NCBI GenBank assembly: GCA_008632985.1
Contig: QPGO01000004.1
Location: 930,001 to 994,000, forward strand
DNA length: 64,000 bases
DNA from: Psammoneis japonica
Taxonomy: Eukaryota
Direction: 5' to 3'
Shown here: one piece after another, positions 4,808 to 56,466 of the stretch
Position numbering within the stretch: position 1 is the first letter of the stretch
Layout of the letters: each line of letters starts with the position of its first letter
The notes under the pieces: generated by a model
Told to the model about the DNA's origin: nothing
The model's input: the letters and a program-made list of their open reading frames with translations, nothing else
The model's database searches: none
Made by a program: the position numbers and the translations under genes

Positions 4808-7719
4808 AACGAAGATGCTACCTTATGAGACATCGCTACGACGAAAGGCATGTGACAGCCTCTTGGTGTTACGTATTTCGGTATAATCAAAAAGACACAT
4901 TCTGTGCTAAGAAGTAGCTTGGCGCCAGATCTTGCTCACGAATCAACAATGAACACGTTGGTACGTAGGCAACCCCACTTGCGTTTCTGCAATACACATT
5001 TGCGACTTGGAAATGGGCAATACTCAACAGATAACGATTGACTTGTTACCGCGTACCTCATCGCCTCACAGAGAAACAGATCAATCAACACTCGGTGTTC
5101 TCACTATGAGCTTGTCACGGTAGTTTCAGAAAGAATGAGCTGTTTCAGTTCATCTAGAGGTAACCTTTCTGGCACAAGAGTTGATTTCCGACCGCTGCGG
5201 TAATGCTGAGGTGTAGTGGTTGTCTGATAGATGCGTAGGTGCGAGCGCCACGAAAAATGAAATAGATATGGTCGATGATCACTCGGTATCATATGCAAAT
5301 ATTTGATAGCCCTAATCAATCCGCATTCACACACTCACACTGATACCTCCAAACAGGCGACCAACGGGAGAACATCATTGCGCGTCGAAGGAAATATGAC
5401 TAGATTGAAGCAACCATCATGTTTCGAAGTCGGTGGCAACAAAATCAAATTGAAGCGAGCCCTTTGAAAATTTCTTGATCTGTAGGGCCCTAGACCTTCT
5501 CTCTGAGATGCCTTGCTGTGACATTGCTAGCGATGGTACGGTGCGGCTCAGGCTACGACGACGATGAAGAGCAACCGCGAAATCGTACTGTTCTCGCACA
5601 GCGTGACATGCTTTGACCACTTGAAATGGTACCAGGAGTCGATACCAATTAAACGCGATGGTTCGCCGACTTCCGAGGCTTGCTATGAGGACGCCCAGTG
5701 ATCCTGCGACATATTCGTGATGCTGGACCGATAGCTACAAAGGTGGTCGCACCTGGCGAACGGTGACGGAACTCGCTTTCAAAGACTTCATGAGCATCTT
5801 AGACACACCAAGAACCAATCCACCGCGCTTCAACCAAAGCCTTTACATACTAGGCGTTGTTTCTTGATACATCATCATCGGCCCATGTAGGTAGTACTTC
5901 TGGCGGGGCGGGGCGTGGATCCCACCTACCCACCCACCGGAAATCAGACCCATGTTGCGGAGACAGTGCTATGGGATGGAATGAAACGAGCACAGTGTGA
6001 AAGTTAACGAAAGAACGAATTCGATTGTGCTTGGTTGGTTTTGGAAAACGAGACAAGGGCTTGCCCTTTGATGACGATAGACGCACATTGTTGGATTCGG
6101 AACGACAAGTAGTGAATGCCAAGATTGGAGAATTGTTCAGCTGAGAAGGCATTCAACATCAACTCTAGCCAGGTGATTCGTCACCTCAGAAAGAACATAA
6201 ACGGAGCTTGGTACCATCAGACAAGTAAACTCACAAATTTCGAGTCTTGCGTTTCTCTCTAGAGAGTATTTTTGCTAGCTACTTTAGAATTGACATTCTT
6301 CTGTTGCTCCGCCAGTTCGGCAGAACACTACTTGTATTTCCCTAACAACAAGTGAACACGACGAATCCATACAAAATATGCAGGCGATTAGCACCGAAAT
6401 AGTCCCACACACATCTATGACAAGCCCTGGGGCATACCGTAACGAATACCCTAGCGCGGACCCCATCTGAAAGAAAGAAAGCGGTGCGGTACAAAACAGA
6501 AACGACGGCATGCAGCGAAATCGCATGCGCTACGACCGTCATCGTAGTCTATTGACGTACGTACGGAATTAACCTACACGCAAATAAAGATTGCTATATT
6601 GTACTTCTAGTCTTTCTACTTCTATTGTAAAGGTTGAAATTGTGTTTCAATAAAATTGAAACACACCAATGTCAAAAGTAGCAATTGAAATCGGTTGCGT
6701 AGGGTGACGTTGCCTCAAGAGCTCCATCAAAAGATGGCGCTCAAGCTTTTACGTATCTTCAGAGAGAAAAATATCACTCTAAAAAATGTAAAAGGGGGGA
6801 CGTACTACGGAGACAACAAGAAAACTTGCAAGTCAACCGCGTTCTAAATCAACACTCCCTACGAGTGAAGACTTACCGTATCATGTCCCTGATACGACAG
6901 AACCCCAAACCTGTGTTCCGTCAACAGTATGATCTGCTCGGCGAGCTTTTGCTGCTTCACAGATGAACGCTGCTGCCTATTTCAACAGCCGTGACCTGAC
7001 GGGTCAAGCGAACAGGCAACTTCCTACGCTCAAAGACACGAGAGTGACATGGACTCAAGGCCGGAGAGACGCATTCGATTTGCCCCGACCTCTGGACTTA
7101 ACTGGCAACACCTACGCCACCTGGAGACAACACGTCAACAAGCATGATGAGTTGTGGAACACCAAACAAGAGCTAGCTCTCTATTATCCGCAAGAAGGGC
7201 GAGCCATCCTGGGCGATCGCGGCAATCGTTGCTTGGCGAACAACAACACATCGTGCGAGACAACGAGTTGTGAGCGAAAGAAGAGCGCGAAAGGAAAAAG
7301 CTTTCGAGAGATTTTGTGTGTCGTGACCGTTGCTAAATTTCTCAATCACTATCATTTTGTGTGTATCTTTGTAGAATTACTACTATGATTTCGTATGTAA
7401 AAGATTCGTGGGAACTCGGTACTTTCCAAATTATTACTAATTCCTACGTATACTTTACGGTAACCGTCGAAAATGCAAAGACTTGCCGAGCGACTGACTG
7501 ACGGAAAAATCTTCAAATTTCCAAATCCATCTGGAAATCCAAATTTGAAAATCGCCATCGTCCCCCACAGCAAATTTGATGTTGAAGAGCACAGAATCAG
7601 ATGATGATGAAGGTCCAAGTGAACACAGATTGAAGATAGAAAAACGGAATATTTATCTGAAGAGAAGAAGAAATCGAGACTCTCTAGAGCAAGAGTCAAC
7701 TGAGAAGAATGCAGAGTGA

Positions 7720-8560
7720 AGCAGACACATTTGTCGAGTGGCCGTCATCAGCGGATCCGGAGCTGACGCAATCGCGATCTGCTCGCATTCGAGCTGTGTC
7801 CATCGCGAACGCGTAGAGAAATTGGATGGGACTTTATTCTCCAATTGATCGATGGCCATTTCTTTTAAGTTGCGCTTTTTTGGTGATTGCCAATGTTGCA
7901 CTCTCTTTCTTGTTGCTCGTGGGGTGGCAGTGTGTGAGCCTTGCACAGATTGTGAACCTCAAAAGCTTTGGTTACAATTGGTCCACTCAAGTGCTCACTG
8001 GTTTGTTCACGTGCATGGTGAGAGTCTCATTGCCCTGGAGAATGGCCAACTTTTGGCACACTGTTGGTTGCGGTTCACGGAAGAACACTCCAGGCCTCGA
8101 TCTCTGCGTCCCACCCACCAAAGACATTTGGAACGCAGGTGTCTTCGAACTGTCTTCTTGTTTGTTTGGATTGATTGGCGTGTTGACATGTGCAACGTTG
8201 TGTCTCTTGGCCCTTGTTCCTTCTTTAAAAGCGCGCGACCAATCTGCTGCTGCTGTGAGCTTCAGGCAGAACATGGACTGGAGGTTGCCACATTTTTTTA
8301 AGATGAGTTTCACGTTTGCATTTCTGGCCTTCACACAGATGTCATTGGAGACCATCAGATTACGACGGGTGAATCCAGGGTTCTTTGCGGATGGAGAGTC
8401 TCCCGCCGACATGGTTGAGAAACACTGGAAAAGGCGCTGTTGCCGCATGTTGAATGTGTGGGAAAGCCAAAGATGAAAAACAGTGACGCTGAAATGGGAA
8501 TTGCAGAAAGTGACCTGGGCTGCTTTCTTGGACCAGCTTTGAGTTTGTTGCCTCTTTTTT
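7720..8560 (+). pseudogene. Degenerate membrane-protein gene, tandem copy A
   Basis: ORF 7826..8476 (NWSTQVLTGLFTCMVRVSLPWRMANFWHT...GLDLC.PPTKDIW) is hydrophobic and protein-like but depleted in Tyr codons. It aligns colinearly with 9115-9910. Confidence 0.6.
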
Positions 8561-10600
8561 ATTTCATCACAACCGTTGCCAAATTTCTCAATCACTGTCG
8601 TTTTTGTGTGTCTTCTTTTTGTTGGGGAGAAGCTGCAGTGCTTCTTCCCACAGCAGTGCGCGCACGTGAAGTTCACGTGAAATGTCACCCAGCAGTGTGG
8701 GGAGAGGGACAGACATGGAGCATGTGGGTGGAGCTGAGGAGTCATGCAGGCAGGGAAGGGGGCATGGGTTTGAGAGCGGGGTGAGTGAGCTGAGAGTGCA
8801 GTTTCGTAGAACAGCGTGTGAGTTGGTTGGCAAGGGATTTGGTGATGGCAAAGCTGATGCTTTGCAAACCCCATTGTGCAGGAGTTGTGGTGTGGTGGGT
8901 GAGACCAAAGCGCGCAGATGAGGTGATTTTCCACACAGCAGTGGAGGCAGGCAAAATGGCAGAGGGTGATGATTGGGCATGGGTGCAGAGGTGGCATGGG
9001 CAGTGGGGTGTTGGAAGCAGGATTCAGCAGTCCAGGGAGGGGCAGGTGGGGCAGCAATGGGGTGATCTTGATCTGCGCCAAAGAGGAGGCGGTGGGCAAA
9101 GCAGCCGGGAGCGCCAAAGACATGTTTGTTGAGTCTCACCATCATCAGCAGATCCAGAGCTGACACAATCACGATTGGCTTGCATTTGAGCTTTAGATCC
9201 ACCACAAATGCGCAGAGAAATTGGGTGGGACTGTGTTCTCCAATTGACCGATGGGCATGTGTGAGCCTCGTGTGGATTGTGAACATCAAAAGTTTTGGCA
9301 CACAGTTGGTCTGTTCAAGTGCTTGCTGGTTTGTTCATGCACATGGTGAGAGTCTCGTTGCTTTAGAGAATGGCCAACTTTTGGCACACTGTTGGTTGCA
9401 GTTTGCAGAAGAACACCCCAGGCCTTGATCTCTGCATCTCACCCACCAAAGACATTTGGAACACAGGTGTCCTTTTCGAACTGACTTCTTGTTTGTTCGG
9501 GTTGATTGGTGCACTGGCTTGTGCAATGTTTCATCTCTCATCTCTTGGCCCTTTTGTTCCTTTCTTCATCAAAAGCCTGCAACTCATCTGCTGCTGATGT
9601 GAGCTTCAGGCGGAACATGGACCAGAGGTTGTGACATTTTTTGAGATGAGTTTCACCTTCGCATTTCTGGCCTTCACATGGGTGTCATTGGAGAGACTGT
9701 CAGATCATGGCAGGCAAATCCAGGGTTCTTTGCAAATGGAGAGTCTCCTGCCAACATGGTTGAGAAGCGCTGGAAAAGGCGCTGTTGCCACAAGTTGAAT
9801 TGCGGGAAGGCTGAAGATGAAGACAGCAATGCTGAAATGGAAATTGCAGAAAGCAAGCTGCGCCATCACTTTCTTGGACTGGCTGTGAGTTTGTCACCCG
9901 TTTCATCACAAAGCAGACATTTTGAATCATGAGAATTTTTTGAGGAGCTTCACTTTTCCTTTTTTGTCCTTTGGTTGTTTTGCACCTCCTTCAACTTTGT
10001 TTGTGATGCTTCTGAAGCACAAGCATCTTTCTTGTTCTTGACTGAACCCTTGCTGTTGGGTGTGGTCGTGAGAAGCGCGCCATTGACAATGGTTTGATGA
10101 GTGCTTCCCTTCCCATCAACCGCTCTTCCGTGTGAGACATTTGAACCTTGTTTGTTGTTTGCACATCCAAAAATGCCATGTTGTCCAGTTCATCCAGCTT
10201 GCAATCAGCATCTTTTGCCAATGCTCTGCCACCAAGCTTCTGGCCATTCTTCTTTTTTCTTTTTTTTTCTTCTTCTTTGGCTTTGGCCGCCCTTTGGCTG
10301 CACTGAGATTCCTTGCTTTGAACAGTGTCCAAGGCATGAGCAGCTCTTTCTTTTGCCAAGTTACTCAAGAAACTGTTCATTCCTGACTTTGATGGATCAT
10401 TTGTGTTCACTTCCTTTTGAACTTTCTCTTCTTTGTCATCTTCTGAATCGAGGACGCTCCCGCCCAATTCCAACGCTGCAATGCTGACTTGGCCATTGCC
10501 CGCTCCTCCTCAAAGACATCATCATTGGAAGCATCACTTGCATCACATCTAGAGAGCTGTGCTTACTTCGACAAAAATCATGTCTCAATTCTTTTCTCTT
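7870..10600. other. CpG- and TpA-depleted block 1
   Basis: By-eye counts: 7921-8520 about 21 CpG / 4 TpA; 9301-9900 about 10 CpG / 1 TpA. ORFs here are Cys/His-rich and nearly Tyr-free (one Tyr in the 378-aa ORF 7987..9123). Boundaries are approximate. Confidence 0.85.
9115..9910 (+). pseudogene. Degenerate membrane-protein gene, tandem copy B (more eroded, frameshifted)
   Basis: Colinear with copy A (e.g. MANFWHTVGCSLQKNTPGLDLCISPTKDIWN; NPGFFANGESPANMVEKRWKRRCC). It is split over several frames, and many differences are CG>TG/CA or TA>CA/TG. Confidence 0.65.
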
Positions 10601-10847: not shown

Positions 10848-13800
10848 ATGTCCCACTCCTCCCTATCTGCTCAGTTGGCATCGCTAAATGCGTCTGCCGC
10901 TGGCGGAAAGAACGCAGGTTCAACGTTGGGCTCATCCAGGCGACATGACGATGCGATTGGGAGAGGAATCGCCCACTCTGCCACTCACGGACACACTGTC
11001 GCTGCATCCAGTCCAAAATTCAAGCCATCTGTGTTGTATGCAGACGCTAAAACGGCATCCGATGTTCCTCTGACGACTCTTCGAGAAAATTCAGTGTCAT
11101 CGCTTCGACAGCTGGCGAGATTGACAGAGAACGATGCGTTTGTCGAACCTGCCATTGTTCAATCTCTCATGGGAGCTCATTCTCTCAACCTTGAAAGAGG
11201 ACTTGCTACTCGAGCTGAAAACGACAAGATAGACAAGGATATTGTAGGCTTGCTCAATCTACTGTCGACCGCAATGGGAGAATCTTCCTCGGCATGCTTG
11301 ACGGCCTCGCTTCACGTTATTGAGTATTTGCTTCGCCGGTATGATATTCACCTTCGAGCAAGCACTGCGGAAGGACTATTGCTTGCCGCCCTGCCCCATC
11401 ACGAGCTTCCTGTCTTTCTACGAGTTTTGCAACTGTTGGATCTGGCTTCCATGCCAACATGGGTGTTTCTTCGTCCTCATGCTGCGAAGGGAGCACCACC
11501 ACCCAGTCGAACGTTGATTGCAAAACGAGCGTCGCGGGATGACGCTATTGTGGCGCATTGCTGTGAAGTTGCAAAAAAGGCTGCATTGATTCATGCCCGA
11601 GAATGCGACAACAATGATAGTCTCCCTTCACAACAGAGGCCTACTCCACGGAGAGGGGTATCCCGAATCATTTCATTCGCTGCAGCCGTCCTTGTTGAAG
11701 CCTTTTCCATGCAAACGACCATTCCCACCAACCAGGGTTCCATTTCCGAACCGACCCTGAGAAGCGTGTTTCCTTTTATTTTGTCTGCTTGTGGTGACAA
11801 CAAGGCTTCATCCAAGCAGTATTCATCTCGGTGGTCGCTAGGGATCTTGTGTCCATATTGGAGAGGCTTTGGTCATTTGTTGGCGGCTACGATATCGGAG
11901 CGCAGTGTCTTGTCTCCTGAGATCTCCCAGGTGCTTGCAACAACCTTGATGAAGGGATCGCTGGAAATCAATAGGTTCATGGCCGGTGGTGGTGGGGAGG
12001 ATGAGCAAACAAATGACGAGCGTATGAAGCTTGCGGCAGACTGCATTCTTGTCGCCATGACAGTTCTCGCGAACGCAGGTGAAGATACTCCTCAGAGTGA
12101 GAGTGATTCAGTCCTCACGATTCTTGTTACAAACCAAGTACAGAGCAAGGCAAATGTAAAGCACACTCTTGGATATTCTCTCTCGACGTCCACGTACCGT
12201 TTGATGAGAAAGCACAACTTGTTGGCGAAAGCAATGGGTCATTTGAACGTTGATCGCAACGTCGAAGTCGCACCGTTGATGGCATCCCTACTCACGCTTG
12301 GGATAGCGAGTCTTTTCAACGACTCTTCACGTAAAGAGGTTGAATCAGATCTTTTCTTAGTTTTAGAATTGGTGAGTCAGTACAATGCGCAGGGGTGTAT
12401 AACTTTGTCTTTTTGAGGTGCACTGCTCACCGTTCCAACTCGTCGGCCGCGGTAAAAGACCCGAGAACCTTCTCTTGAGTCCGTATGGACCGATTCCAAA
12501 TTCAATATTACAGCTTCATTTGCTGCGACCCTTGTTTCGATGTTTGCTAATCATCAAACGGACGAAGAAGTAGAATCTCGTGACGCGGAATCGATCCGTT
12601 CAGTTCTTGATGCTTTACTCCTCGTGGACCCTACCCAATGCGATGCGGGCGTTGCTCACGCAGTTACCACTGTTTGCAGAAAAGGTGGAGGTAAAGGGTC
12701 CAGATCTAGGCGTAAGAAGCGAGTTTCGCTGCTAACGGGATCGCGAAACCTGGCCCTGGAAAATGCAGAAAGTGATGGTGATGTAGTCATGGGCAATGAT
12801 GCCGAGGCATCCGAGTTGCTTCCGCCCCGGGTTGCACTTGAACACCCTGACAAATCCGTTCGATTAAATGCAATAAGCAGAGTTACGGAGGAACTTACTG
12901 GAATGGATGCACAGGACGAGAAGGGAGAGCCACTGGAGCAGGCCCTTATTCGTCGGATGAATACGGAGGACGACGTGCAAGTTGCCGCTTCGGCGGGAAA
13001 TTCTTTGGTTAAGGTGCTGACAATGCGAAAAACTAGCTTTCTGGGTGACGCATTTGTAAACATGACCGCTACGGCCTTGGTTAAGTGGTCTGTCTTTAGA
13101 GCAGATTTAGAAAAGGCGGAAGGTGAAAATGACTCCGAGTCCATGACTGTCGATGGTGACAGACTTGGCGTGCTTTTTTCGACTCTCGTCGCAGCAGCAT
13201 ATGCAACAAGATGGTTAATCGAAAGCAGCTCGAATGAATTGACGGACATGACTGAGTCGCAAGCGACAATGATTTGTGGCATCGTGGCGCATCTCGACTT
13301 TATGTTCTTCAAAAGCGAGAACCGCGAGAGCCAGTTTGAAGAAGTTGCACTTCACGCAGCTGACGCGCTCGAATTGGCGTTGTGTGTGGAACACAAAGGA
13401 AAGAAGAAGCCAAGCAAGCGCGTAAGAATCAATACCGTGAAAAAGCTTCTGGCCAGTAACGAAAAGTGCACGTCCGTGCTGAAGCAGAGTTGCTCTTCTA
13501 AATCTCGGTCTCAGCTTGCGGATGTCAAATCGACTGGTGAAGCTTTACTCGAGCGGAGATACATTTGGGTTATGCTGCTGTCCCTATCTCAGTACATCGA
13601 AAAAGGGTCGCCTGACAGTGATGCGGTGTCGGCTGCAATGATGTGTTCTTTGCATATTCTTCGTTCGTGTCAGAAAGGGGAGACATTTCAAGAGGCTGAA
13701 GTGTCTGAGCTTCTGAAGTGCTTGCAAGTTTGTTCTCGGGATATATGCTCTCAGGATGCCCCATCAGTGCCTGAAACTATCATTTCTCTTGCTTCAATAG

Positions 13801-16800
13801 CATCGTTGGCAGCCTATCAAGACGTCTCAAGAGTGGCTATCAAATACTTTTGCAAAAGCGTTGTTTCGGTGGAAGGTGTTGGCATTTCTCCAGTATCCGT
13901 TCTCATGGAGGCATGTACGAGGGTCTCTGCATCTGCAGATTCAGTTGAAAGGCTGCTTTCTATAGTTTCTGATTGCCTGTCTTCTACCAGTGTCACAGAT
14001 GGCTCAGCAGCAAATTGCTTAGTTTCAGCCATGATGCTGTTGGGTAGCGATATGCAGCGCATAAGGAAAGCGACTCTCCAGATCCTCAGCCAGATCTCTC
14101 AAAATGCGGAAACCGACAGTGCCGTAATAAAGGACATCTGTTACATTGCCTCTAGTGGAAACGGGAATGATGGGATGTATTCAACGCTTTTGATGAATGG
14201 GGAAGCGGCTCTTCCCAAGTTGGTTGCTTCGGCGCTCCAAAGCTCGAACGAACCATCGAAGCTGCAGGAATATTTGATTCGACACTGTTTTCGTTCCGCA
14301 TTGGCGAGTGACGGTAGTCGCAATTCCGAGTGGTTGCCCATTGGAAGTGCAGCTGGTGGCTGTCGTGCTGCCGCGTTCGGGCTGAAAGTGTTGGAGGTTG
14401 CCGGCGAAACAGCATTTCCTCTTGCCATGCGATGGAAGTATGCGGGAAAAGAAATCGTCGAAATCATCCTGCAGGCGGCTCAATCAGCGGAAGATAGGCA
14501 AGATACCCCCCTTCATGTTCTGATCGACCCGGTCGCGACCATGCTCAAAGGCGTTATGGTTACTGATGCACGATCTCTCCCTCAATCCAGTGTAGTGATA
14601 TCGACTGGACCTGATAGAAAAGGTGGACGGGTCAGATCGTACTCTGTGGGGAAAATGGAAGGTGTCTCTTATGTTAAGCCATATCCTGATGATATGTTCA
14701 AAGCTTTAATTGCTTGCATATCGCCCCCACTTACCGAAACGCATCAAAAGAATCCGCTTGCTCGAGAGCTCATTCTGGGAGTGCTAAATAATGTTTTCAC
14801 TAGGTCATGGGGAGAGGGAGTGTTCAAAGAACTTCCTGATAAGAAACGCCGAGAACTTGGTTCTTGTTTGTTGAATCTACTCTCTGTTTTCACCGAAGAC
14901 GCTGTTGCGGAAATGGCACTTCAAGAACTTCCTTTACGTGCTTCTGATATATCTTGTCTTCTCAAAGATGCAGATCCAGGGGATGAATATCTTTTAATGG
15001 TTACGTTTCTAAGCGATTGGGTACGAACAAACGCGATGGCTTTGATTCAAGACAGCGATCTATCGCAGTTGGTATCTGCCTTTTTTGAAATTCTCTCTTC
15101 CCTTTCGTCCGCAACAAGCGAACGCAATGTTGACATCGATGAATCAGAGTATACACGTTACGCGATTCTTCAAAGTCTATTTGCATTATCTCAATCTTCA
15201 AAAGACTCCATGGGAGCTACAGTCGTTCAGCAGAATATGACTGGGCACGTTAAACTAATTGTTGGGCTGGTTGGTGGTTCCGTTGATAACAGCGGCACAG
15301 ATGGCTCGCGCGTCCGACCATTTGTTTCTATCAAAGCAAAGTCAAGTGCCATTTCGTTGCTTACGAACCTTTGCTCCATGAACCCAACGGCTGTAGTGAA
15401 CGCGCTTGTTCCAGCGCTGATGGCAACGATGATTTCAGCATCCTATAGCGATGGTGAAAATGTACGAGCCTCTCGGGGAGCCCGCGACGCCTTCATGGGT
15501 GTAATACCGGTATTCTGCAGCCATGGTCCCCTCTTTCACCTTGTCGTTGATTTCATTTCTGAATGCCAGAAATTCACCGAGAACGGGGACAAGCTGCTCA
15601 TGTATGAAAATCTTATTGATGCCGTTGTTTCCGCAAAGAAATCAGACGGAGGTGGAGCTTCCGTAGGGTCCATTGTAGCTGCTTTCCTTGCGAGCGAGCT
15701 GTACAAAAGCCAAAACGATATGGAAGAATCAAGTCGCGTCGATTCTTTCGAAGAAAGCGGGGTTAACGAAAGCGTGGTAACTTTTGCCTCTAATCTGATT
15801 GCGTTTGCACCGGCAGATGTTCAAATAGATGGTATACTTCAACTTCTTCGATACTTGAATCAGTTTGTTGGTAAGCTGGCACCTCCAACAGCAGAATCTG
15901 ATCAAGAAATGGACTCGAACGATGCGACAGCAGATCCAATGGTAGTCCCTTTTGATGAAATAGAGAAGCTAGCATTACATGGGTTGGAGCGGAATGGAGA
16001 TGTCGAAAGTCGAGGCAAAGATTACAGCTTCAAAGAGCGATGCCACGTTATGAGGCTGAGTACAGGCATCGTAGCTCTAATAATGGATACTCTGTCGTCG
16101 GGATCGGTTTCAAGGCTTCTCAAAAACAGTGAGGGTCTAGGGTCTGCGCTATGCTTGAAGTTTTGGCAAGATTTGTTGTGTATACAGGCTACCGTGTTCG
16201 ACCTGCAGCCATTGCCCTCATCTGACGAATCCTCTTCCATTGAAAACCGATTTTGGGAGTCAATTAAAGAGCTTGTTACCGAAGCTCTCGAAAGTCTGCA
16301 GAATCTGTTACCGGCTCACACATTTCTTGCGTCGGCGTCGTCACTCATTCGGGAAGAAACCGTTAGCGAGGAGCTTCGCGCCAGGGCGGTGAGGCTCGTG
16401 GCAGAAAAGGCCGCCGAAGCTGAACCTCATTCAGCTGAAGCTACAATTTTTCTTGACATGCTGCCGACGTTTGTTAGCTTACTTGCGCCGTCAACTGATA
16501 ACACAAGAGAATCAGCGACTCTGTTGCGCCAGTCAGCTCTTATTGCAATTGAGCACTTTGCACGATCCATATACATTCATTCGGCTCCCGAAAAGCCCGT
16601 TACAACGCACTCAAAAGAGTTTCTCTCCGCTCTGGAAAAGGTTTCCGAGATTCTCGACAGCAAGCGATTTGTCGAGATGTCAGAAGATGGTTTATCTGTG
16701 GCCGACGACGAAGCCGTCCAGCTGCAGTGTACTGCTGCATTGTGCTCGTCGACGCTTGTGCGTGTACTACAAGTGAGATGCCTTCCTCTTCTTCCGAAAA

Positions 16801-18291
16801 TTGTTGAACCGCTGATAACATCATTGATCTCCGCAAACACTTATCTTATCTCAACTTCCGCTGTCGGAAGAAAGGAAGAGAGAATTACAATGAAAATGAT
16901 GCAAGTGTCAAGCCTTCGCGCAGTGGGAGAGTTGCTGGAAGCTCTTCCTCAGTTTCTTCTCCCATACCTGGGTAAGCTGCTATCACCTCTAGGGCTGCCG
17001 TCAAGAGCGCTTCGAATTGCCGAAGGTGATCAGGATACGCCCGTTAAATCAACGGTGGAGCTCATTCAAGGCACCCTTGCGTCTCGTACACCCTCTCGCC
17101 AGCTGGTTCCAGTTGCCTGCGGGGCTTTAGGAAGGGATGATTGGGGCTGTGTAGAGTTGCAGTCGCTGCTAGCAATTGTCGAAGCTTCTGTCAAGTCTGC
17201 GAAGAAAGGCGAAATTCCCTCGTTGACACGGGGGGTTCTGAAGGCGCTGAAAATTGTGTACGAGCGGGGTGGAATTGATGTCGATGGTGATCGGATATTT
17301 GATGCTGGTCACAAGTTGCTTCTCGCGCTTGTTTTTAAGATTTCAGAGGCGCTATTGCGCCCTCTATACTCGGAACTCCGTGAATGGAGAGGCTCTATTG
17401 ACCCGAAGAATAGTGACAAGCACGTTGCATCAAGAAGACTCGCATTTTGGAGCCTATCCGCAGTCCTCGCCAAGGAGCTCAGGTCGATTTTTCTTCCTTG
17501 TATGACGACCGTAGTTACCGATGCAGTCGAGGAGCTTGTAAGTGTTATTCAATTCCAAGTTGCTGCCTGTTTGTTTTCTTTTCTTAATATTCGCCCTTTG
17601 ATCTCCTGTTTGTCAGAATTCTGCTGCCTCCTCTTTATGCAGCAAGACTTCAGAAAAGTCTTCAGGGGGGCACAAAAGGCGTCGCCTTGCAATGACCGTG
17701 GAAGATGACGCAGAAACCTCTGCCATTAACTCCTTCCTGCATCTGCGACCTCTCTTACTCTGTTTAGAGTCTGCGCTCAAGTCAGATGCACATGAGGGTG
17801 GTAATTGGTCACGAGCAGACGACGGGGATAGGTTCAATGCACTGCTCGCTCCACTTGGAATGCTGTTACAATGCAGAATCCCCTCTAATTTGCTAATCGA
17901 GAGGGCAAACCGAGAGTCTCCTAGCGAGACATACAATCCGTTTCAACGAGTTGTTTTGGGCACTGGACAGGACGATGGCGGAAGCGTGATTGCGTGTTTG
18001 ACAGCCTTGGCTGCAGCGGCAGGTAACGAGCAGCTCTGGAAGCCGTTGAATCATCGAGTTCTAGAAGCATGTGACAACGGAAGGTCTGAAGTAAGAATGG
18101 CAGGTGTGAGCTGCCTGTTGTCGCTTATGAAAACTTTGGGCGAAGAGTACATGGTGCTCCTTCCCGAATGCTTGCCTACCCTTGCGGAGTTGCTGGAGGA
18201 CAGTGACGAAGAGATCGCCAGGATTGCACAGGAGTGTGTTAGCATAGGAGAGGAGCTGCTCGGAGAGAGTCTCCAAGACCGTCTGCGATAA
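10848..18291 (+). CDS. UTP10: U3 snoRNA-associated protein 10 / HEATR1 (3 exons)
   Basis: Exons 10848..12371, 12459..17537, 17617..18291; introns GTGAGT...AAAG and GTAAGT...TCAG keep the frame. N-terminal SSLSAQLASL, PS.LY and IEYLLRRYDIH...LPHHE motifs; BP28CT-like FKISEALLRPLY; C-terminal WKPLNH..L...LGEEYMVLLPECLPTLAELLED. Confidence 0.92.
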
Positions 18292-23299: not shown

Positions 23300-24950
23300 T
23301 CATTTGTTGCTTCCATTGAACTGCTCCTTCGTGCTCTCTGTTCACTTGCTTTTGTTCCACCAGTGCAATGTTGCCACACTGTAGTTGATGAACCCACCAC
23401 AACCCAGGCTCTGTGTGTCACCCCTGCACCTGCACTGGCTGGTTGCAGATCTTTGCCAAAGTGGTCACTCCAATTGCTGCAAATGTGAAGGGACTCAAAG
23501 TGCAGCTCACATGCTTGCTGGAGGAGATGGCAGAGAAAAAAAAGGGGATTGGTGCCCACATGGTTGTCAGTGTGCACCAGGAATGGTCTGTGAATGGCTC
23601 AAGCACAGAATTGTCAAGTCCAAGGGAATCAAATTGTCTCACTCCCAATGAAGAAGAAAGTGCTCAAGATGCTCACACTGGAAGATGGCTCTTGATTCAA
23701 AAGACTTCCAGCATGAGAGTGCATGAAAGCAAGCTCAATGAGCTGCCACGCAGTGCAGCTCCCTTGCTTTTGAGATGACATTGAACTCAAACAACTCCCT
23801 CTTTGGTGAATGCAGCCATTCTCAAGACACAAAAGTGTGCTGCTCATTGGGCAAGCTGCAACTGATTTGACCAACCACAGATCTTGCAGAGGCCTGTCTT
23901 GCATTTTCAATTCAGCAGGTGCTGGGTTTCAAATGGCCACCTTGTGGGCAATCTTTGCACCAACCACACATGGGCGGCTCAGCTTTGCTGTGGAAAGTCA
24001 ACCAAAGCTGATCATTCAGATTTCCTCAATCATGGTGTGGAAATGAAATTGCCTGGTTTCCAGCAATGGCATCTGCTGCTTGTCTTGCCACCCAACAACC
24101 AACCCTTGTGTCAACATTTCTGTGGCTGTTGTTGCTTGCAGGCTTTGAGATGTCACTGGTGTCAGGGTGTGGATTGGCACCAGATGGGCTCACAGACAGA
24201 TTGTTTGATGTCAAACCAGCCAAGCTGGCACGCAAAGCTCTCAGCAGTTTCCTCTCTCCTTTGCCTGTTTCATTTTTGCAAATTTGTGCCTTTTTGCCTG
24301 TGTGCTTGTCAGCAACATGGCTGTCTCTGCTCTTCAGTGCCTCCACTTCCCCCTGCATCTTGTCAGCTGCTCTTTGCTCTTCGTGTGCCCCAGTTTTTTC
24401 CTGATTTTGCAGCTCAGCAGGCCCTGGATTCCACCTGTTGCCAGGCACTGCTCTTGCCAATTGTTGCTTTCAAAAGTCTAAATGAGACTTTTGTCTTGCA
24501 GCAGCTGACCATGTTCTGTGGCAATGCCGGGAGATCTGGCTGCTCTTGAGCAGCGCAGTTGGCGAGAGCGCTGAGAGCCAGGAACATCTTTGCACAAAAA
24601 GCACACGTCAAGTGTTCCTTGAAGGGCAAAGCTTTTCAAGCATTGCATTTCATTGTCAACTCCATCATGCTGTGTTGTGGATGTCTGCAATGTCACACAT
24701 GTTGTGGAGCCTGCAACATCCACTGCAATGCACTCACTCACACGGCGACACAGCCCCTCTCTCGATCTTGTGAGCAAAGTTGTGCAATCTTGTGTGGCTG
24801 TGGAGAGTTTTCAAAGCAGACATTTTTCATTTTGGCTTGTTTGCATTGGACTTGAGGACTGGGGCGCTGTCCCTGGGTCCATTGAAGATTGCAACAGCAC
24901 ATTGTTCACAAATCCGCTGAAACGAACTTGATCACAGCATTGTGAGAAGC
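23300..24950. other. CpG- and TpA-depleted block 2 (eroded sequence, origin not recognised)
   Basis: TA is almost absent after ~23390 (one survivor seen, gtctaaa ~24479), with TG/CA excess and many overlapping Cys/His-rich Tyr-free ORFs. Confidence 0.8.
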
Positions 24951-25230
24951 CAGCCAAGAGGGCGCGGTGGAGATTTGGTGACGTCAGCACATAAGCTGCC
25001 CATCCATCTACACAGTACCGGCATTACAGTATCGCGCATCGGACCACAGTTTTCCCGCCACAATGAGCGACCGCGCCGGGGCACGGCATAAAATGAGAGA
25101 TGATAGTGCTGTTTCTCCTGTTGGCAACTGTTGGTTTAGACTTGTGAGTTTTCAGAAGACTCGATAAGCTCCCAATAAAAGCAGGACTTTGGCAACAAAA
25201 TCTGGCTTCAATTTACCAGTCAACTCAAAG

Positions 25231-26699: not shown

Positions 26700-27440
26700 T
26701 CTTGGGCTTCCCGAATGCCAGACTTGAACACAGGGTGCACCACAGTCAACCAATTTCGTAACCTGTGTGTAGAGTGAGTCAAGTGCTCATCAACCAAATC
26801 AAACAAGTGCACCTTATCTTTACCAAGCAATTGTTGACTCTGGAGCAGATGGCCTTGACTTCTGCCTTGGTGCCACGATGTTGGGAAGACTTTCAGGTTT
26901 CCGAGTCGTGTCCGTGCACTGCGTCGTTGTGTGAGTCCCACAATTCCCACCATTAAGACCAAACGTATGATCCCATTGCAGCTGCCCAATCCAATCTCTG
27001 ACCGCTGCCTCCTGATCATGATGTCCGCTTGTCAACAGGTGTGTCTGCTGAGCTGTGTTCCATTCCACCGAAAACCTGCCATTGGAGATGTGATGCCACC
27101 CTGTCCCATCTTAAGAATGGAAGACAGAACAGATGCCGTGATGTGCATCATCTGAGTGTGCCAATTCTTCCCAGAACCAAGACTCCAAACTCAGCAACAG
27201 CATGTCATGCAAGGAAGGAGAGATGTGCACATTGTCACACTTTTTGTGCAGGCCCTGAAGGAATGTCCATCACCATTGTTCATCACCGGGGCAGTGAAGA
27301 ATGTGGTCCTTGTCTTCCATGGGAGACTGTCAATGGATGCAACAATCTGGTTGAAGTGTCTTGAATGAGAGTGCAGCACTGAAGCTGCTGCATGGGTCTG
27401 GCAAATTTCCAGGAGCAACCCCTTTCCCAGTTGCAGAGCC
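26700..27440 (-). mobile_element. Degenerate non-LTR retrotransposon, 3' end of ORF2 (zinc-knuckle region)
   Basis: Minus-strand translation PDCCIH*QSPMEDKDHILHCPGDEQW*WTFLQGLHKKC...LESWF, then TGWHHISNGRFSVEWNTAQQTHL. This matches the CxxC..ExxxHxxxC and IGW...GRFS.EW..Q..YL pattern of non-LTR ORF2 C-termini. In-frame TGA stops are present. Confidence 0.72.
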
Positions 27441-28060
27441 CATGCACACAGAATGAAATTCTTTTAAAATTTGGTCACATTCCAGGTCATCTCATGCAGT
27501 GCCACAAAAAGCTGCTGATTCTGTTGGTTGGCGCATGCTGTGGATGACTTTTGACACAGACATGACTTGTTCTTGTTTGAGAATCTGTGAAACACAACAC
27601 AGCTTGAAACTCAAGAAAAAGATTCTGACCACCAACTGCAAGCATTGAAGCAAATCAACAAGAGTGCTTGTCAAGCTCTCTGCAGCCCTCTTGTTTGTGT
27701 GTGACCATGACATGGCATGATGGCACTCTTCAGGCCAGTGCAATGGATCTTTTCTTTTGCTGCCCCCCCCCCCCCCCCCCCGCACACACACACCACCAAC
27801 ACACACACACGTGCATGCACGTGCATTGCAGCTGGTGGTGTTCAGGGCATGGTTCACAAGGTTTTCTCCCACCCTTTTTTGAAAGTGCTGTGAAATGCTC
27901 TTTCCTTTTGTCACATGCAGAGAAGCATGTTGTCCCCCTCTGGCTGCCCCTCCTTTCTGTTGTTGGCTTCACTGGACTTGTCAAGCTCTCTGCAGCCCAC
28001 CCAGTCATGAAATGCAGCACAAGCCTCTCAATCCCCAGAGAGCTGGGTGAAGGAAGGGAC

Positions 28061-28064
<4 letters not shown>

Positions 28065-28111
<47 letters not shown>
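28065..28111. repeat. (GT)n microsatellite abutting assembly gap
   Basis: Perfect GT repeat running into Ns. Confidence 0.95.
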
Positions 28112-28456
28112 NNNNNNNNNNNNNNNNNNNNNNNNNNNNNNNNNNNNNNNNNNNNNNNNNNNNNNNNNNNNNNNNNNNNNNNNNNNNNNNNNNNNNNNNN
28201 NNNNNNNNNNNNNNNNNNNNNNNNNNNNNNNNNNNNNNNNNNNNNNNNNNNNNNNNNNNNNNNNNNNNNNNNNNNNNNNNNNNNNNNNNNNNNNNNNNNN
28301 NNNNNNNNNNNNNNNNNNNNNNNNNNNNNNNNNNNNNNNNNNNNNNNNNNNNNNNNNNNNNNNNNNNNNNNNNNNNNNNNNNNNNNNNNNNNNNNNNNNN
28401 NNNNNNNNNNNNNNNNNNNNNNNNNNNNNNNNNNNNNNNNNNNNNNNNNNNNNNNN
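28112..28456. other. Assembly gap (345 N)
   Basis: Run of N. Confidence 0.99.
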
Positions 28457-30834
28457 TGCTTCAATCCTGGGGCCTGCCTCTGGCATTTGCTGCAAGTGCA
28501 GCACCCAGAGTTGCCAAATTCACAGAAAACCCCTTGTGGAGATCTCTTTCTGCATGGATCTGGCTGCACAGTGCAATCTTCTCATGCTGTGGATGACAGA
28601 CAATGCTGGAGCATTTTCTTCCAAGCAACTCCAATCTGGTGTGGCGTGCTCTGGATGTGAGTGCACACATGCTGCTGCCACAGTGACAACACAAAAGAAT
28701 TGACAAAAAGGCACTGCAGGCAGAACTGACATTTGCACTTTTGCTGCAGATGGGGTGCCCAAATGTCATTTGTCATTTCTTGTTGGGCATTGCAGAAAGC
28801 AGCTTTGTTGGATCTTTGTCAACACGGTGCCACATGGCTGCAACCACCCAACTGGAGACCCACTCCCTGCCAAGAACCCATGAAACACCCCATTTTGCTT
28901 TGTCTTGGTTGTGCATTTCCCTTTTTCATGATGGCACATTGCATGTTGACTCTTGTTCATGTGCTCACCACCAGCCAGATTTCCAGCAGCTGCTGAGTTG
29001 CAGCCCACCACAGTCACAGAAAGGCAAGTGCCAAACACGGGGTCAATGTGGTGTGTTGTCATCCCACATCCAGTCTCATCACTTGTTGCATCACTCAACT
29101 TTTGCGCTGCTGCAGCCAGCTCTCACTGTCAGCTGTGTGAGCACACCAATGAATCCACTGTTGTCAAGACAGCATCAAACCCATCAAAAGCTGGCATTGT
29201 GCCTTGTGCACCATCAGGTGATGAAAATTGCAGGTTGTTGAAAGTCACATTGCAGACATTGTGAGCCCAGTTTGCCTCATTGATGGAAATGGAGTTGTGC
29301 AAATGGGGGGTTGCACAAATTCTCTGTCAGCTCAGATTTTGGATCACATGCAACCTGCCTTGTTGAGGTTTCTCCAACCCCATTTGCACATCATCATGCA
29401 TGTGCCCATGGGTGCTGTCTCTTCATGTGTCATCATGCTTTTGTTGCCTTGATGACCTGTCAATGTGTGCATGCCATGTGCATGGATGCTCGCTGCCAAA
29501 ATGCATCAGTCACTGAGCCACACACACCCCATGCTTCCATGGGATCAGCTGCACAGGGTCTTGCTGTGTGTTGCCAGTGCAGCACATGCTGCAACTGACT
29601 GGTGGAGAACTGTTTTTAGAGCTTTTACAAAGCAGCTGCAATGTGCTCAGCCAAGCATTTTTGAATGGGAGAGAGTCTCAAGGAACTGGAGTGAAGAAAT
29701 GCAGAAAAACAGCTGAGCAGTGCATTGACAAAATCGTTTTTATGCTGTCACTCTGCAGAGTGCCAAATTTTGAAAACACTGCCTGGCTTGCATCTGCTCT
29801 AAATTGACTGAAAAGATGTGAGTGTGCAATCTGAAAATGAAAGAGTGTGTGTGTGGCTCACAGTGCTGAGTTTTTTTAAGGAAAGTTTGGCACCTGTTTT
29901 TGGCATTGAAGAGGTCAAACACACAGTTGTCCTCAGGAAACCAGCCATGGTTGGAAAAGGGAGCACAGCCATGAATTGGTTTTGTGTTGTTTCCAAGGCA
30001 CACAGACAGAACAGCTGGTGTGTCAACTCTTTCTGTCATTGCACCACAAGTCACGGGAGGTTTGGACTCCACACAACCATGCCCACACAACTCAAAGTTT
30101 TTGGAAGGGAATTGTGGCTGGCCTGGACTTTGACCCCCACTGTGGCAGAGCCACAAAATGTACAAAACATGAGCAACAGCTCTGCAACTGACATGGCCCT
30201 CTGCTTTTTGTCCCCATAAGTTGTTGGGAACTTTGTGCCAGCATGATGTCAGTCAATTGATGTGTGCATCTTGTCAAAACCAGGGGTTTTGTGATTCATC
30301 AAATGTGCAAGAGATCCCTTTGCAGTGCACATGAGTGCAACATTGAAGAGACTTGCAGCTGTCCAGAGTGGCTTCTGCAGACTTGTGCGACACTCTGCAT
30401 GTGATGGTGGGCAGGGCAGTGCTGCTGGGGAGCAAGAGCAAAGTCTTGGCACGCTCTCTCACTCTTCTTTCAAAGAGCAACGAGCCAAGAGAGCCAAGGC
30501 AACATCATTTCCCACCTCTCCCACCCGAAGGCATTTCACAGTGCCAGCAGTAAAGCTGTCTCCTCTCCAGACAAACACTGATGCAAGGCTTGCCTTGCTG
30601 GCGCATGTGCCCGACTTGGACTGCCACGGAGGTTCAAGTGCCGGGTTTCGCGCGCTCTTCGCGTTCTGGGTTCCCTGCGACCTGCTCCTGCTTCGTTTGG
30701 GGGTTTTGAAGCTTGCGGCCATGTCGTCGCCGCCAACAAAACTGGAAACCGCCACCGCGTCCAGCGGCTTCCTGCTTCCTTCTCTCACGAGCATCTGTTA
30801 TCAACCAGAACGGTAGACGGGGCTTTTCAGAACA

Positions 30835-32748: not shown

Positions 32749-35439
32749 TGTTTTCTGGAATGTACGTAATAGCTCAAGGGATGCAGAATCAAGATCACTA
32801 GCCACACAGAGTCTTCTTGCCGCTAATGGAGAAGACTGAAGACAAACAACGCCGAGATGCCCCCCGCGATGCGAGTTGAAGTAACAGTGTAGACCTAAGC
32901 CCATAACCCGTTCGAATGAAGAAAAATGATTTTATGATGCAGCAACTTCCAGTCTTTAGAGTTTGTCACATCATCACGGATCTCCTTCCATTCTACCGCA
33001 GCTAGGGCCCTAGAGATGCAACTGCTGGGCATCCTGAGGGTGTTGTCGGATAGATTGTCATTTTAGAATGAGCTGTTTTCATTCACATTTTTCATTGCTT
33101 TCCTGCAACAACCTTGCTGCTGTGATTTCTTGCCTTTGTTCTTTTGTTGGCTGTGACTGGGGGGGCTGCCACATGCCCCCCCCCCCCCCGCCCTGGCTTT
33201 GGTTCTCTCATCTTCAATGCCACAATCTCTTTGGCCACAGTCTTCACTTCAGCTCTGCTTGCATCCTCCTCAATGTGGGCCTCATGCTCCACCTCAATCC
33301 TGTGACGTCGCACGTCGTCGACTGCACCAGTTTCCAGGCAGGTGCCTGGCGGGGCACGCTGCCAGAAGCTCTTGCCAGCCCACCAGACCACCCCCAAGCT
33401 GAGCTCCTGGCAGTGCTCACATTTGCTTTTGAGTGAGTTGCCAACTGTTGGCTCACCTCCTCCAAGGCTGTGCATGCCCCCCTCATCTCCTTGTGCGGGC
33501 ACATGAAGCACGGCCAGTCCATCATTTTTGATGAGATGACACCCAACTCATCCACACCAATGGTGAGTGACAGCTCTCAAGACACTCAGAGGTGCCGTGC
33601 AACCAGCGTGCCAACTTCTTGAGATTGTCAATGTCTGGGGTCAAGCACAAAAATGAGATCAGTGTTTGCAAGTCGGGCTGGTGGGTCTGCGCTGATGGAA
33701 AAAACAACTTTGTGGTGTTGGGCGTGATTGCTCTGCCTTCTTCCACACTTGGGGGTTCAAGGTTCTCACTGCCAATGTCAAGCAGGTGGCCAGGTGCTTG
33801 CACAGCCCACAGTTCTGACCACTGGAGCTTGCTCACTGCTGTTTGAGTGATTTGCAGACCCACACATGAAAACACACTTTTTGCAAGCACCTTGATCACA
33901 GATGTCAGTGCAGCTCCAATCTGCACATTCCCAAGAAGCAGAGTTCTTACAAGAAATTGCATCTTGTTCTTGTTGTTGCAGTGGTGCAACCACCTCACAA
34001 GAAGATTTTGATGTGTGGCGCTGCTCCCTGCACTCTGGCCGGAACAGCAGCAATCTTCTGAATGAAATCGTGTGCTTCTCAAATGTTGAGGCCGCACGTT
34101 TGGGTTGATCCAACAAAGCACAACTCAATGGAAGTTCCATGGAAAGATGCCACAGCAACATTGCCTGCATCTCCCAAACAATGACACTCCTCTCTCATCC
34201 TGGCACCTGAAACATCAGCAACTGTCTGGACTGCCTGTGACACCAACAACCAGCTGACCTGCAGCATCATGACACTTCCTTTTGTCATGCTTTCCCAGGA
34301 TCAAGTTGATCACCTGCATGAGCATCCACATGTCATCATCTCTTGCCTTGTCCATGTGCACCCCTCCAATGAACATGATGTGACATGCTTGAAGATGTTT
34401 TGGAGAAGCTCCAACTTGACATTTCTTTTCACAGTCGAAGCTGTGTCTGCAAAAGCATCTGCAAGTGGGCTGTGTGGCAGTGCATTCTCCTGGTGGCTTG
34501 GTTTTGTTGGTTCTTTGTTGCTGCCACCACAAGATGGTTGCAAGGATTTCTTGTCCACGGCCACCCATTGTTTGTTTCTTTTGCAGGCCCAGCCAGCCAG
34601 TGGTGCCTTTGCAATCGTCGCGGCAAACAAGCATTCTACTTTTTCCGTTCTTGTGGCCTTCTTGGTGCAGAAATCAGTTTCAATTTCAGGGCATTCCTTT
34701 TGAGAATCAGTCTGATGATTGGATTGTTCATTGCTTTGATCATGTGATTTCTGATCCTGTGCAGTCCCATCTCCCTTGTCATCATCATCAAGGCAGATTG
34801 GATTTTCCACCATTAAATTCTGCATCAGGTTGGTGCTTTTCAAAGTTGAAGCGCTGGCACTAACGGGAGCCTTTTTGGCGGTCAATTTTGTGATGCACAA
34901 GTCCATTTTTTGTTGTTTTAGCCCCTTTGTTTTGGGTGTTTGAATGCCCATCCATGCATTGAGTGTCGACTGTCATTTTGTTCCCATCAAAGGTGGTGCT
35001 TTCATGGCCCTGTGACTGCTCTTTTTGGGTGGTGTTAAAAGTTCTTGAACTCCATCATTGTTGCCTTTGCCAGACAAGTGCAAGTCAATGGCTCTTGTTT
35101 GACAGATCCACTTGCAGCCTCTGACAACTTGCATGCCTGCATCCAGTCAAAATTGCACACGGGGTTTGGATTTCAGATGTTGCCTTTGACTTTTCTTTTG
35201 TCGCTGCCTTTGGTTTGCAGTCTTCTTCTTCACACTCACAATCTTCATCATCATTGTCATCATCTTTTCTTGCTTGAGTCACGTCTTCTTGGTTGCCATC
35301 TTCTTCTTCCTGTTTGGTGTCATTCTTCTCCTTCTTTTGCAAAAAATGGATTTTGACCACCCATTCCATGACCAATCTGGCAGCTTGCAAGAGTTCCTGT
35401 GTCTTCTGCTCTGGGTGTCACCACTTGCAGCAAGAATCG

Positions 35440-35617
35440 CAGTGGCAGTCTGTCTGTGCAGTGATTTCTGCACACATGTTTTGCACTTTTGTCCGTCCAC
35501 ACCACCTCCAGCCTGAACCCGACCAACCCGACTCCAACTGGATTGGGCTGGAGGTGGCAGGGACAGATGAAAGCACAAAATGTGCACAGAAATCACTGCA
35601 CAGACAGACCGCCACTG
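35440..35617. mobile_element. MITE-like ~180-bp inverted repeat with CAGT...ACTG ends
   Basis: Arms of about 72 bp (cagtggcagtctgtctgtgcagtgatttctg...ccacctccagcc and its reverse complement) flank a ~33-nt spacer. CAGT termini are typical of Tc1/mariner/pogo TIRs. The inverted repeat is certain; the MITE call is inference. Confidence 0.55.
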
Positions 35618-45273: not shown

Positions 45274-48460
<3,187 letters not shown>

Positions 48461-56241: not shown

Positions 56242-56466
56242 ATTGTTGCAATGAAACTCATGTGTTTGTCAAACAGTCCATGGATGATGGATTGGCAACA
56301 GAAAAATGCCAAATGTTGACATTGTTGCAACGAAGCTCATGTGTTTGTCAAACAGTCCATGGATGATGATGGAATTGGCAACAGAAAAAAACCAAATGTT
56401 GACATTGTTGCAATGAAGCTCATGTGTTTGTCAAACAGTCCATGGATGATGATGGATTGGCAACAG
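56242..56466 (+). repeat. Tandem repeat, ~80-bp unit x 2.8
   Basis: Units start at 56242, 56321 and 56404 (attgttgcaa[t/c]gaa[a/g]ctcatgtgtttgtcaaacagtccatggatgatg...gcaacag). Confidence 0.92.

Follow-up and report, generated by a model that had tools for sequence, protein, structure and literature searches.

We analysed a 64,000-nucleotide stretch of contig QPGO01000004.1 (positions 930,001 to 994,000 of the forward strand; hereafter the window, numbered from its first letter), focusing on a tandem duplication whose two units carry damaged copies, A and B, of a gene matching the DUF2985 family. The duplicate was placed at 7720..9910 by a first-pass annotation, and it proved to be real. A repeat search found ten co-linear direct-repeat blocks, spaced 1246-1399 bases apart, which a transition-tolerant alignment joined into a duplication spanning 7319-9912, with units of ~1.25-1.35 kb (unit 1, ~7319-8575; unit 2, ~8565-9912). 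After reduction to purines and pyrimidines, identity was 98% between 7319-7370 and 8565-8615, 94.2% between 7723-7855 and 9118-9254, and 93.8% between 7930-8553 and 9257-9899. The strings quoted in the first-pass annotation were located at 7742-7778 (copy A) and 9139-9175 (copy B). No further match to the duplicated unit was found within the window in nucleotide or purine/pyrimidine space. The right part of the duplication lies in a domain depleted of TpA and CpG, referred to below as the scar. The features of the locus are as follows:

7319..7370 (+): short repeat, copy 1; start of unit 1, with normal TpA and CpG content (repeat block D9, 91% in ordinary sequence)
7371..7722 (+): unique upstream region of unit 1; A-rich, of normal composition, with ATAG, ATAT and CTAG still present
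7723..8575 (+): copy A, DUF2985-family gene relic; first 137 bases pristine, body from ~7860 without most TpA and part of the CpG
7826..8476 (+): open 216-codon open reading frame (ORF) in copy A; spans the family core, with a conserved motif out of frame
8565..8615 (+): short repeat, copy 2; start of unit 2, scarred relative to 7319-7370 (TpA to CA/TG, CpG to CA)
8616..9117 (+): G-rich spacer of 502 bases (41% G); unique, depleted of TpA and CpG
9118..9912 (+): copy B, heavily decayed pseudogene, with a 72-base deletion, gaps, stops and a profile match in three frames
9913..10550 (no strand): unique tail downstream of the duplication; depletion equal to that of copy B
~7860..10550 (no strand): the whole scarred domain, with approximate borders; offset from the duplication at 7319-9912

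The duplication is not a clean copy, because the middle parts of the two units (7371-7722 and 8616-9117) are non-homologous: shuffled sequences scored as high in 278 of 300 trials in purine/pyrimidine space and in 97 of 300 in nucleotide space. The gapped alignment of these two segments within the transition-tolerant alignment was no better than shuffles and was not trusted. ORFs over the spacer had no Pfam family. An insertion may be the source of the spacer, and could be what attracted the scar. In the tail, the antisense ORF at 9994-10509 (-) had no Pfam family and no homologue at E ≤ 0.01.

The duplicated unit resembles a cellular gene and both copies are damaged

The first-pass annotation took the unit for a host gene rather than a transposable element, and the homology searches agreed. 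The 216-codon ORF of copy A matched Pfam DUF2985 (PF11204) with 29.2 bits against a curated cut-off of 22 (E 9.4e-7). An exhaustive search with this ORF returned 65 relatives at E ≤ 1e-3, 11 of them at E ≤ 1e-10, and many spanned ORF residues 16-205; a word-index search returned one relative, P0001, with 65% identity over 85 residues. A 26-relative profile scored the core of copy A (profile positions 83-275) at 115.7 bits. Given the DUF2985 match, the 65 relatives and the presence of only two copies in the window, the unit is a cellular-type gene of the DUF2985 family and not a recognisable transposon.

Both copies were found to be damaged, as had been proposed. Copy B has lost 72 bases (7859-7930 of copy A) and carries 16 further internal gaps of 1-7 bases, two stops (CGA to TGA at 9187-9189; TGG to TAG at 9364-9366, codon 71) and a family-profile match scattered across three frames. 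The ancestral frame of copy A is broken despite its open 216-codon ORF. A tblastn search with P0001 placed residues 41-77 at 7746-7865 (with stops) and residues 87-171 in a different frame at 7880-8131, and the 26-relative profile placed positions 19-77 in frame 0 (7671-7871) and positions 83-275 in frame 2 (7874-8470). The conserved CxPRxxCEPRN motif lay in frame 1 (7921-7974; profile positions 100-117), out of frame with the core. An intron was ruled out as the cause of these frame changes: coding sequence lies on both sides of the site, and the 9 codons of the relatives correspond to only 14 bases here. The N-terminal part and the motif are in other frames than the core in both copies, and since the motif is misframed in both, its lesion probably predates the duplication. 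Conserved core columns were changed in copy A at 25 of 73, including R114, G95 and Y94, and 17 of these changes were identical in copy B. With the frame not intact and conserved residues altered, neither copy appears to be a working DUF2985 member. The open ORF of copy A is partly a by-product of TA loss, since this loss removes TAA and TAG stops; for the same reason, minus-strand ORFs of 378 codons (7987-9123) and 232 codons (8588-9286) run over the region.

Transitions between the copies concentrate in pyrimidine-purine steps

We compared copy A (7715-8580) with copy B (9105-9920) over 780 aligned bases, 646 of which were identical (82.8%), with 112 transitions and 22 transversions. The earlier observation that CG had become CA or TG nearly throughout held for 29 of the 36 CpG of copy A (17 CA and 12 TG in copy B, against 5 CG and 2 CC). 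Likewise, 5 of the 6 TpA of copy A were CA (3) or TG (2) in copy B and one was CG; the examples given in the first-pass annotation are those at 7814 (TAG to CAG) and 7835 (TAT to TGT). Shared pyrimidine-purine steps (348 sites) held 83 of the 112 transitions, and the remaining 432 sites held 29 (odds ratio 4.35, Fisher p 1.5e-11), so the pair does read out a context-specific mutation spectrum as first suggested. Outside pyrimidine-purine steps, 26 of 390 sites showed transitions (6.7%), a rate that measures the ordinary divergence since the duplication. In addition, the alignment contained 19 double swaps, previously unremarked, in which one copy has CA and the other TG (10 CA to TG and 9 TG to CA, from A to B). 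This number far exceeds the expectation from two independent events at 6.7%. Also unremarked in the first-pass annotation were 10 CpG of copy B that are missing from copy A.

Protein relatives indicate the direction of change

To assign a direction to these differences, we aligned the ORF with the 26 relatives and mapped both copies codon by codon. The count covered 73 consensus core columns with a codon in both copies; excluded were residues 1-18 and 36-49 (the latter misframed), 26 codons deleted or gapped in copy B, and columns with no consensus (89) or a shortage of relatives (13). The family residue was kept by both copies at 37 of the 73 columns, by copy A only at 10 and by copy B only at 1. 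Where both copies were off consensus, they agreed with each other at 17 columns and disagreed at 8. The direction assumed in the first-pass annotation is thus borne out by the protein relatives, and its reverse, in which the outgroup would carry TG or CA at these sites, is not what was found at the protein level, where the 26 relatives favour the residues of copy A.

Individual codons followed the same course. Conserved tyrosine codons had become TGC or CAC: Tyr50 (Y in 20 of 26 relatives) is TAC in copy A and CAC in copy B, Tyr63 (Y in 23 of 26) is TGC in copy A and CAC in copy B, and Tyr94 (Y in 25 of 26) is TGC in both. Other codons differed in a comparable manner between copies A and B, namely Thr62 (ACG and ATG), Arg85 (CGG and CAG), Arg180 (CGA and TGG) and Leu179 (TTA and TCA). 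At Gln41, copy A and its closest relative, P0001, share CAG, copy B has TGG, and the 26-relative consensus is Arg (16 of 25). Because the codon cases, compared with the 26 relatives, follow the proposed chemistry, the changes ran from CG and TA to CA and TG, in place. At Tyr63, one ancestral TA decayed independently in each copy, and decay of this kind accounts for the swaps.

The scar border cuts through the repeat

To locate the border of the scar, we used TpA and CpG positions and 100-base bins. The first ~540 bases of unit 1 had normal densities (TA 44 and CG 55 per kb), whereas the body of copy A was intermediate (TA 8.4, CG 33.5 per kb) and low values were found in the spacer at 8616-9117 (TA 2.0, CG 25.9 per kb), copy B (TA 2.5, CG 17.6 per kb) and the tail at 9913-10550 (TA 3.1, CG 17.2 per kb). 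Relative to normal DNA, the body of copy A retained 21% of TA and 59% of CG, and copy B 6% and 31%. The TpA left in the body of copy A (6) and in copy B (2) are all TTA, the resistant context, so on TpA the body of copy A is as fully processed as copy B and the copies differ mainly in CpG. Since the survivors inside are all TTA and a GTAG at 7814 is kept, the TpA border lies between ~7815 and 7930.

The same border was evident from the comparison of the copies. In the 7723-7859 segment of copy A, 11 CpG were lost in copy B only and 0 in copy A only, and 1 of 15 CA/TG steps was swapped. In the 7931-8575 segment, 18 CpG were lost in copy B only and 7 in copy A only, with swaps at 18 of 110 CA/TG steps. 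As a rough estimate, two-step changes at the rate of the 5' segment would produce ~7 of these 18 body swaps, and the remaining ones imply ~20 sites that decayed independently in both copies. The border of the scar is therefore positional, cutting through the repeat, and does not coincide with the border of homology.

The first-pass annotation had suggested that duplication itself triggers the process. In a mechanism resembling repeat-induced point mutation (RIP), pairing of the copies would mark both for point mutation, with leakage into neighbouring sequence. Both copies are indeed mutated, the 19 swaps and Tyr63 point to independent decay after duplication, and RIP in Neurospora leaks into adjacent unique DNA. 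However, the scar is offset from the repeat and ignores homology: it leaves the first 137 duplicated bases of copy A intact (copy B alone has lost 11 CpG there, copy A alone 0), affects the 52-base repeat in unit 2 only, strikes the two copies to different degrees, and depletes the unique spacer and the 640-base tail to the level of copy B. The other ~21 kb of scarred domains, described below, share no repeats with one another within the window in nucleotide space or even in purine/pyrimidine space. The chemistry also differs, with A:T to G:C changes at TpA and C:G to T:A changes at CpG at constant G+C. Moreover, the TpA hypermutation described in Bigelowiella natans acts on a hypermutable region reported as single copy in the preprint text (Mettrop et al., bioRxiv 10.64898/2026.01.13.699255). 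We therefore regard a RIP-like process as quite improbable. Duplication is not supported as the trigger, though it may still contribute.

The same scar recurs in other domains of the window

We next considered the composition of the whole window, which is a mosaic. Most of it has a CpG observed/expected ratio (o/e) of ~0.8-1.3 and a TpA o/e of ~0.5-0.75, with depleted blocks at ~8-10.5, 23.3-24.9, 27-30.5, 33-37, 39-41.5 and 49-60 kb. Interior windows of these blocks had TpA o/e of 0.00-0.09 and CpG o/e of 0.04-0.36, with TpG and CpA o/e of ~1.4-2.3 (3.2 and 3.1 in the window with an N gap). At least 5 other domains thus bear the same scar as ~7860-10550. Normal DNA had TA 40.1, CG 57.1 and CA/TG 138.5 per kb (together 235.7), compared with TA 2.9, CG 8.3 and CA/TG 226.6 per kb (together 237.8) in the 23.9 kb of depleted DNA. 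The total of pyrimidine-purine steps is conserved, the mass balance is exact, and G+C is unchanged (~0.47-0.48). The products showed no strand bias in depleted blocks: CA and TG counts did not differ significantly in 9 other depleted blocks, copy B, the spacer and the tail (p ≥ 0.2). The body of copy A had 86 TG and 51 CA (p 0.0035), and two normal blocks deviated too.

The two depletions were closely associated. Over 63 one-kb windows, CpG and TpA o/e were correlated (Spearman 0.74); TpA o/e was below 0.2 in 25 of these windows, 22 of which had CpG o/e below 0.4, and the reverse was seen in 1 window. By our own reading of 100-base bins, the ends of TpA and CpG depletion lay no more than ~200 bases apart at 9 of the 12 borders. 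At the other 3 (7900, 24900 and 37000), CpG was partly back 400-700 bases inside the TpA-free zone, and the reverse was never seen. TpA loss is thus faster than CpG loss, and arithmetic from the segment densities gave a ratio of TA to CG decay exponents of ~2.4-2.9. At the borders 24500-25000 and 36400-37000, CpG was partly present again and TpA still absent, as in copy A.

A Pfam scan covered 85 of the 104 ORFs of at least 120 codons in the window, and none of the depleted-domain ORFs scanned had a Pfam family above its curated cut-off. A CycT2-like_C match in a depleted domain was disregarded, with 18.3 bits against a cut-off of 27. Only one target of the scar could be identified, the DUF2985 relic. 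Long ORFs without a Pfam family were found on both strands of TA-free DNA (7987-9123 (-), 8588-9286 (-) and many in 49000-60000), and most likely arose because TAA and TAG had been lost.

These results bear on the possibility that the depleted composition was inherited or selected, as in foreign or RNA-derived DNA with suppressed CpG and UpA, and not made in place. CpG and UpA are suppressed in many RNA viruses and cytoplasmic RNAs (see PMC3829696), and no homologues or domains identify the depleted DNA among the ORFs scanned. Nevertheless, copy B changed in place relative to copy A and the 26 relatives, which refutes this origin for the 7860-10550 domain. Furthermore, the depletion goes far beyond that expected of selection (TpA o/e 0.01-0.08), the loss is balanced one-for-one by CA and TG, and pseudogenes are not under such selection. 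An inherited composition is accordingly very improbable.

A second internal read-out of the same process was provided by an inverted repeat at 35437-35620, in another domain. Its arms gave 89 aligned bases, of which 68 were identical, with 20 transitions, including CA/TG swaps, and 1 transversion. A tandem repeat at 56235-56466, also in a depleted domain (83-base unit, 2.9 copies, 92% matches), was considered as an alternative read-out and rejected, its copies being too alike to inform; given how few sites differ between them, the array postdates the decay.

An assembly or sequencing artefact, whether haplotypes misplaced in tandem through collapse or systematic base-calling errors, was also weighed. 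The window does contain a 345-base N gap and a single N, and the frameshifts of copy A could in principle be assembly errors. On the other hand, divergence between the copies reaches 17% and is context-specific, they also differ by indels and in their spacers, the same signature extends over ~24 kb with sharp borders, and the inverted repeat at 35437-35620 shows the same transition-only divergence. The chance that the scar is such an artefact is close to negligible.

The base 5' of TpA governs its decay

To determine the sequence context of the decay, we examined the dinucleotides surviving in the domains at 8600-10500, 23300-24900, 27000-30300, 33000-36900, 39000-41300 and 49100-60000. In depleted DNA, 63% of surviving TpA were preceded by T and 50% were followed by A, compared with 21% and 21% in normal DNA (chi-square p 7e-15 for the 5' T and 2e-9 for the 3' A). 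A per-strand additive model on the base 5' of TpA gave exponents of 3.37 for A, 1.96 for G, 1.25 for C and 0.26 for T, and fitted all 16 tetranucleotides (likelihood ratio 117.5, 3 degrees of freedom). TpA decay thus follows the rule ATA>GTA>CTA>>TTA. Survivors in the TTAA context numbered 21 against 37 expected, and no ATAT or ATAC survived. CpG survivors fitted the same type of model less well; GCGC was best kept, with 30 observed against 57 expected without decay.

Taken with the domain data, the flank rules bear on whether CpG and TpA loss are one process, in which a single enzyme system attacks both self-complementary pyrimidine-purine steps. Candidates would be a dual-specificity deaminase acting on A in TpA and C in CpG, or a 5-methylpyrimidine oxidase acting on T in TpA and 5-methylcytosine in CpG. 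The shared domains (Spearman 0.74), the coincidence within ~200 bases at 9 of 12 borders, decay exponents only ~2.4-2.9 times apart and identical products without strand bias argue for one system, and the preprint on B. natans cites ADAT2-type enzymes that deaminate both A and C (bioRxiv 10.64898/2026.01.13.699255). Against this, the live data given in that preprint are TpA changes without CpG changes, and part of the CpG persists in copy A and at 3 of the 12 borders where TpA has disappeared. The flank rules differ as well, that of TpA being clean and additive (A>G>C>>T) and that of CpG a poorer fit with GCGC best kept, and the target base would lie on opposite sides of the dinucleotide if both reactions were deaminations. 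We regard a single system for both steps as rather unlikely.

A proposed domain-targeted origin of the scar

The best explanation of these results, and one we consider probable though well short of certain, is that an old DUF2985 tandem pair straddles the left border of a 2.7-kb domain hit by domain-targeted TpA and CpG transitions. It builds on what the sequence shows: the context and direction of the transitions, their sharp positional borders, their occurrence in whatever sequence lies within a domain, the faster loss of TpA than of CpG, and the fact that each copy decayed independently. Within such domains, TpA and CpG would both be converted to TpG or CpA, nearly to completion. The target would be a chromosomal domain, probably of silenced chromatin, and not repeated sequence as such; copy B lies wholly within the domain and copy A only from ~7860. 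By analogy, the TpA loss would be the same kind of TpA-directed A:T to G:C hypermutation as in B. natans, and the CpG loss may reflect deamination of methylated cytosine in the same silent domain.

Several points weigh against this explanation. The silenced domain and the deamination of 5-methylcytosine are both read from sequence. The host is probably not B. natans, and the identity of the mechanism is drawn by analogy. In the preprint data, the excess of G:C to A:T changes is about nil (1 of 231), yet the exponents found here differ only ~2.4-2.9-fold, and for these reasons CpG loss may exceed ordinary slow decay of 5-methylcytosine. The swap count suggests that most of the decay of copy A postdates the duplication, and a duplication trigger predicts the same timing. 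Some swaps can arise by two steps in one lineage, as in the case of Gln41.

A broader proposal is that one domain-targeted genome-defence mutator, in a host other than B. natans, erases CpG and TpA, turning them one-for-one into CpA and TpG in any DNA within the domain, cellular gene relics included; it would obey the flank rule ATA>GTA>CTA>>TTA and have borders resembling those of chromatin. We advance it tentatively, as possible but unlikely. If true, a single domain mutator would represent a new kind of eukaryotic mutational silencing, unlike RIP in chemistry and trigger and wider than the TpA-only process.

Comparison with known mutational systems

The closest system is that of B. natans. 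According to the preprint text, its mutation-accumulation lines acquired 231 mutations in two regions of integrated viral DNA, and 230 of them were A:T to G:C. The latter all struck TpA, at ~6e-7 per site per generation and in some lines only; the genome is also reported to contain 124 clusters depleted of TpA and enriched in CpA and TpG (Mettrop et al., bioRxiv 10.64898/2026.01.13.699255). As the enzyme responsible, the authors put forward a DNA adenine deaminase resembling ADAT2. The domain-targeted process suggested here shares with the system described there the change of TpA to TpG or CpA on either strand, domains on the kb scale, a trace depleted of TpA and enriched in CpA and TpG, and independence of copy number within the window. 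Unlike in that system, CpG is purged in the same domains here, while the term 'CpG' occurs 0 times in the preprint main text; the target includes a cellular-type gene relic and not recognisable viral genes; and TpA o/e is 0.01-0.08, compared with the 0.45 given there for the region of nucleocytoplasmic large DNA virus origin. The flank rule ATA>GTA>CTA>>TTA is not stated in the abstract, Results or Discussion of the preprint. The genes of the window are long uninterrupted ORFs (for example, 1722 codons at 12540-17708, 94% covered by a relative), and these point to an intron-poor genome, whereas B. natans has 8 introns per gene on average (PMC13746701, Table 1). Moreover, a collection of 15 billion proteins contained none of 10 ORF proteins of the window that were looked up as exact sequences. 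The host here is therefore probably another organism.

Compared with RIP in Neurospora and other fungi (see PMC2621366), the scar is likewise heritable, dense, transition-only, context-specific and gene-destroying, with copies that differ at the same site. RIP, however, makes C:G to T:A changes only, mostly at CpA, and enriches AT, whereas here both transitions occur and G+C is unchanged. RIP also needs duplication and follows the repeat, whereas the scar described here has its border inside the repeat and affects unique DNA to the same extent. RIP further relies on a methyltransferase of the RID/DIM-2 type and on a premeiotic stage.

Methylation-driven CpG decay in vertebrates and plants resembles the scar in its change of CpG to TpG or CpA on both strands of presumably methylated DNA. 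It differs in that the rest of this window has a CpG o/e of ~1 and decay occurs only within islands, an inversion of the CpG-island pattern, and is coupled to TpA loss. ADAR hyperediting is similar in its A-to-G change and its 5' U/T preference, but ADAR acts on double-stranded RNA, whereas the changes here are fixed in chromosomal DNA at a tandem locus. In addition, ADAR prefers a 3' G, and the flank rule found here, if read at +1, is T>C>G>>A, which does not match that preference.

Significance

CpG decay is long established in textbooks, and TpA hypermutation has been described in the 2026 preprint. In neither the preprint text nor the literature searched did we find the combined loss of CpG and TpA in the same sharply bounded domains, a cellular-type relic as target, the flank rule or a probable second host. 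Searches on RIP in diatoms, or on CpG, TpA or TpG with diatoms, returned nothing on this signature; searches on Bigelowiella with methylation returned no paper or, in a looser form, none that mentions Bigelowiella among the 12 listed of 6,158, and searches on deaminase, hypermutation and TpA returned only the one preprint.

The pair constitutes a natural experiment in which a sequence present twice lies partly inside and partly outside a scarred domain, and protein relatives serve as the outgroup. It shows that CG and TA were lost in place, that the direction was from CG and TA to CA and TG, and that the process stops at a positional and not a homology border. Because the stop is positional, the process is separate from RIP. 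The pair would extend the only known TpA hypermutation to CpG, to cellular-type sequence and probably to another organism, and the flank rule is checkable against mutation-accumulation data. The results also carry a warning for annotation: TA-free DNA, lacking TAA and TAG, yields long false ORFs on both strands, such as the 378 codons at 7987-9123 (-), and misleads gene finders.

Other features of the window

No Rfam families or tRNAs were found in the window. A poly-C run (27765-27782) and a (GT)23 microsatellite (28065-28111) stand beside the 345-base N gap (28112-28456), in a depleted domain. A HEATR1-like ORF had two relatives only, at 28% identity. A GH2 beta-galactosidase at 45274-48454 (-) is split over two overlapping ORFs, whose junction at 47084-47127 is either a short intron or a frameshift.

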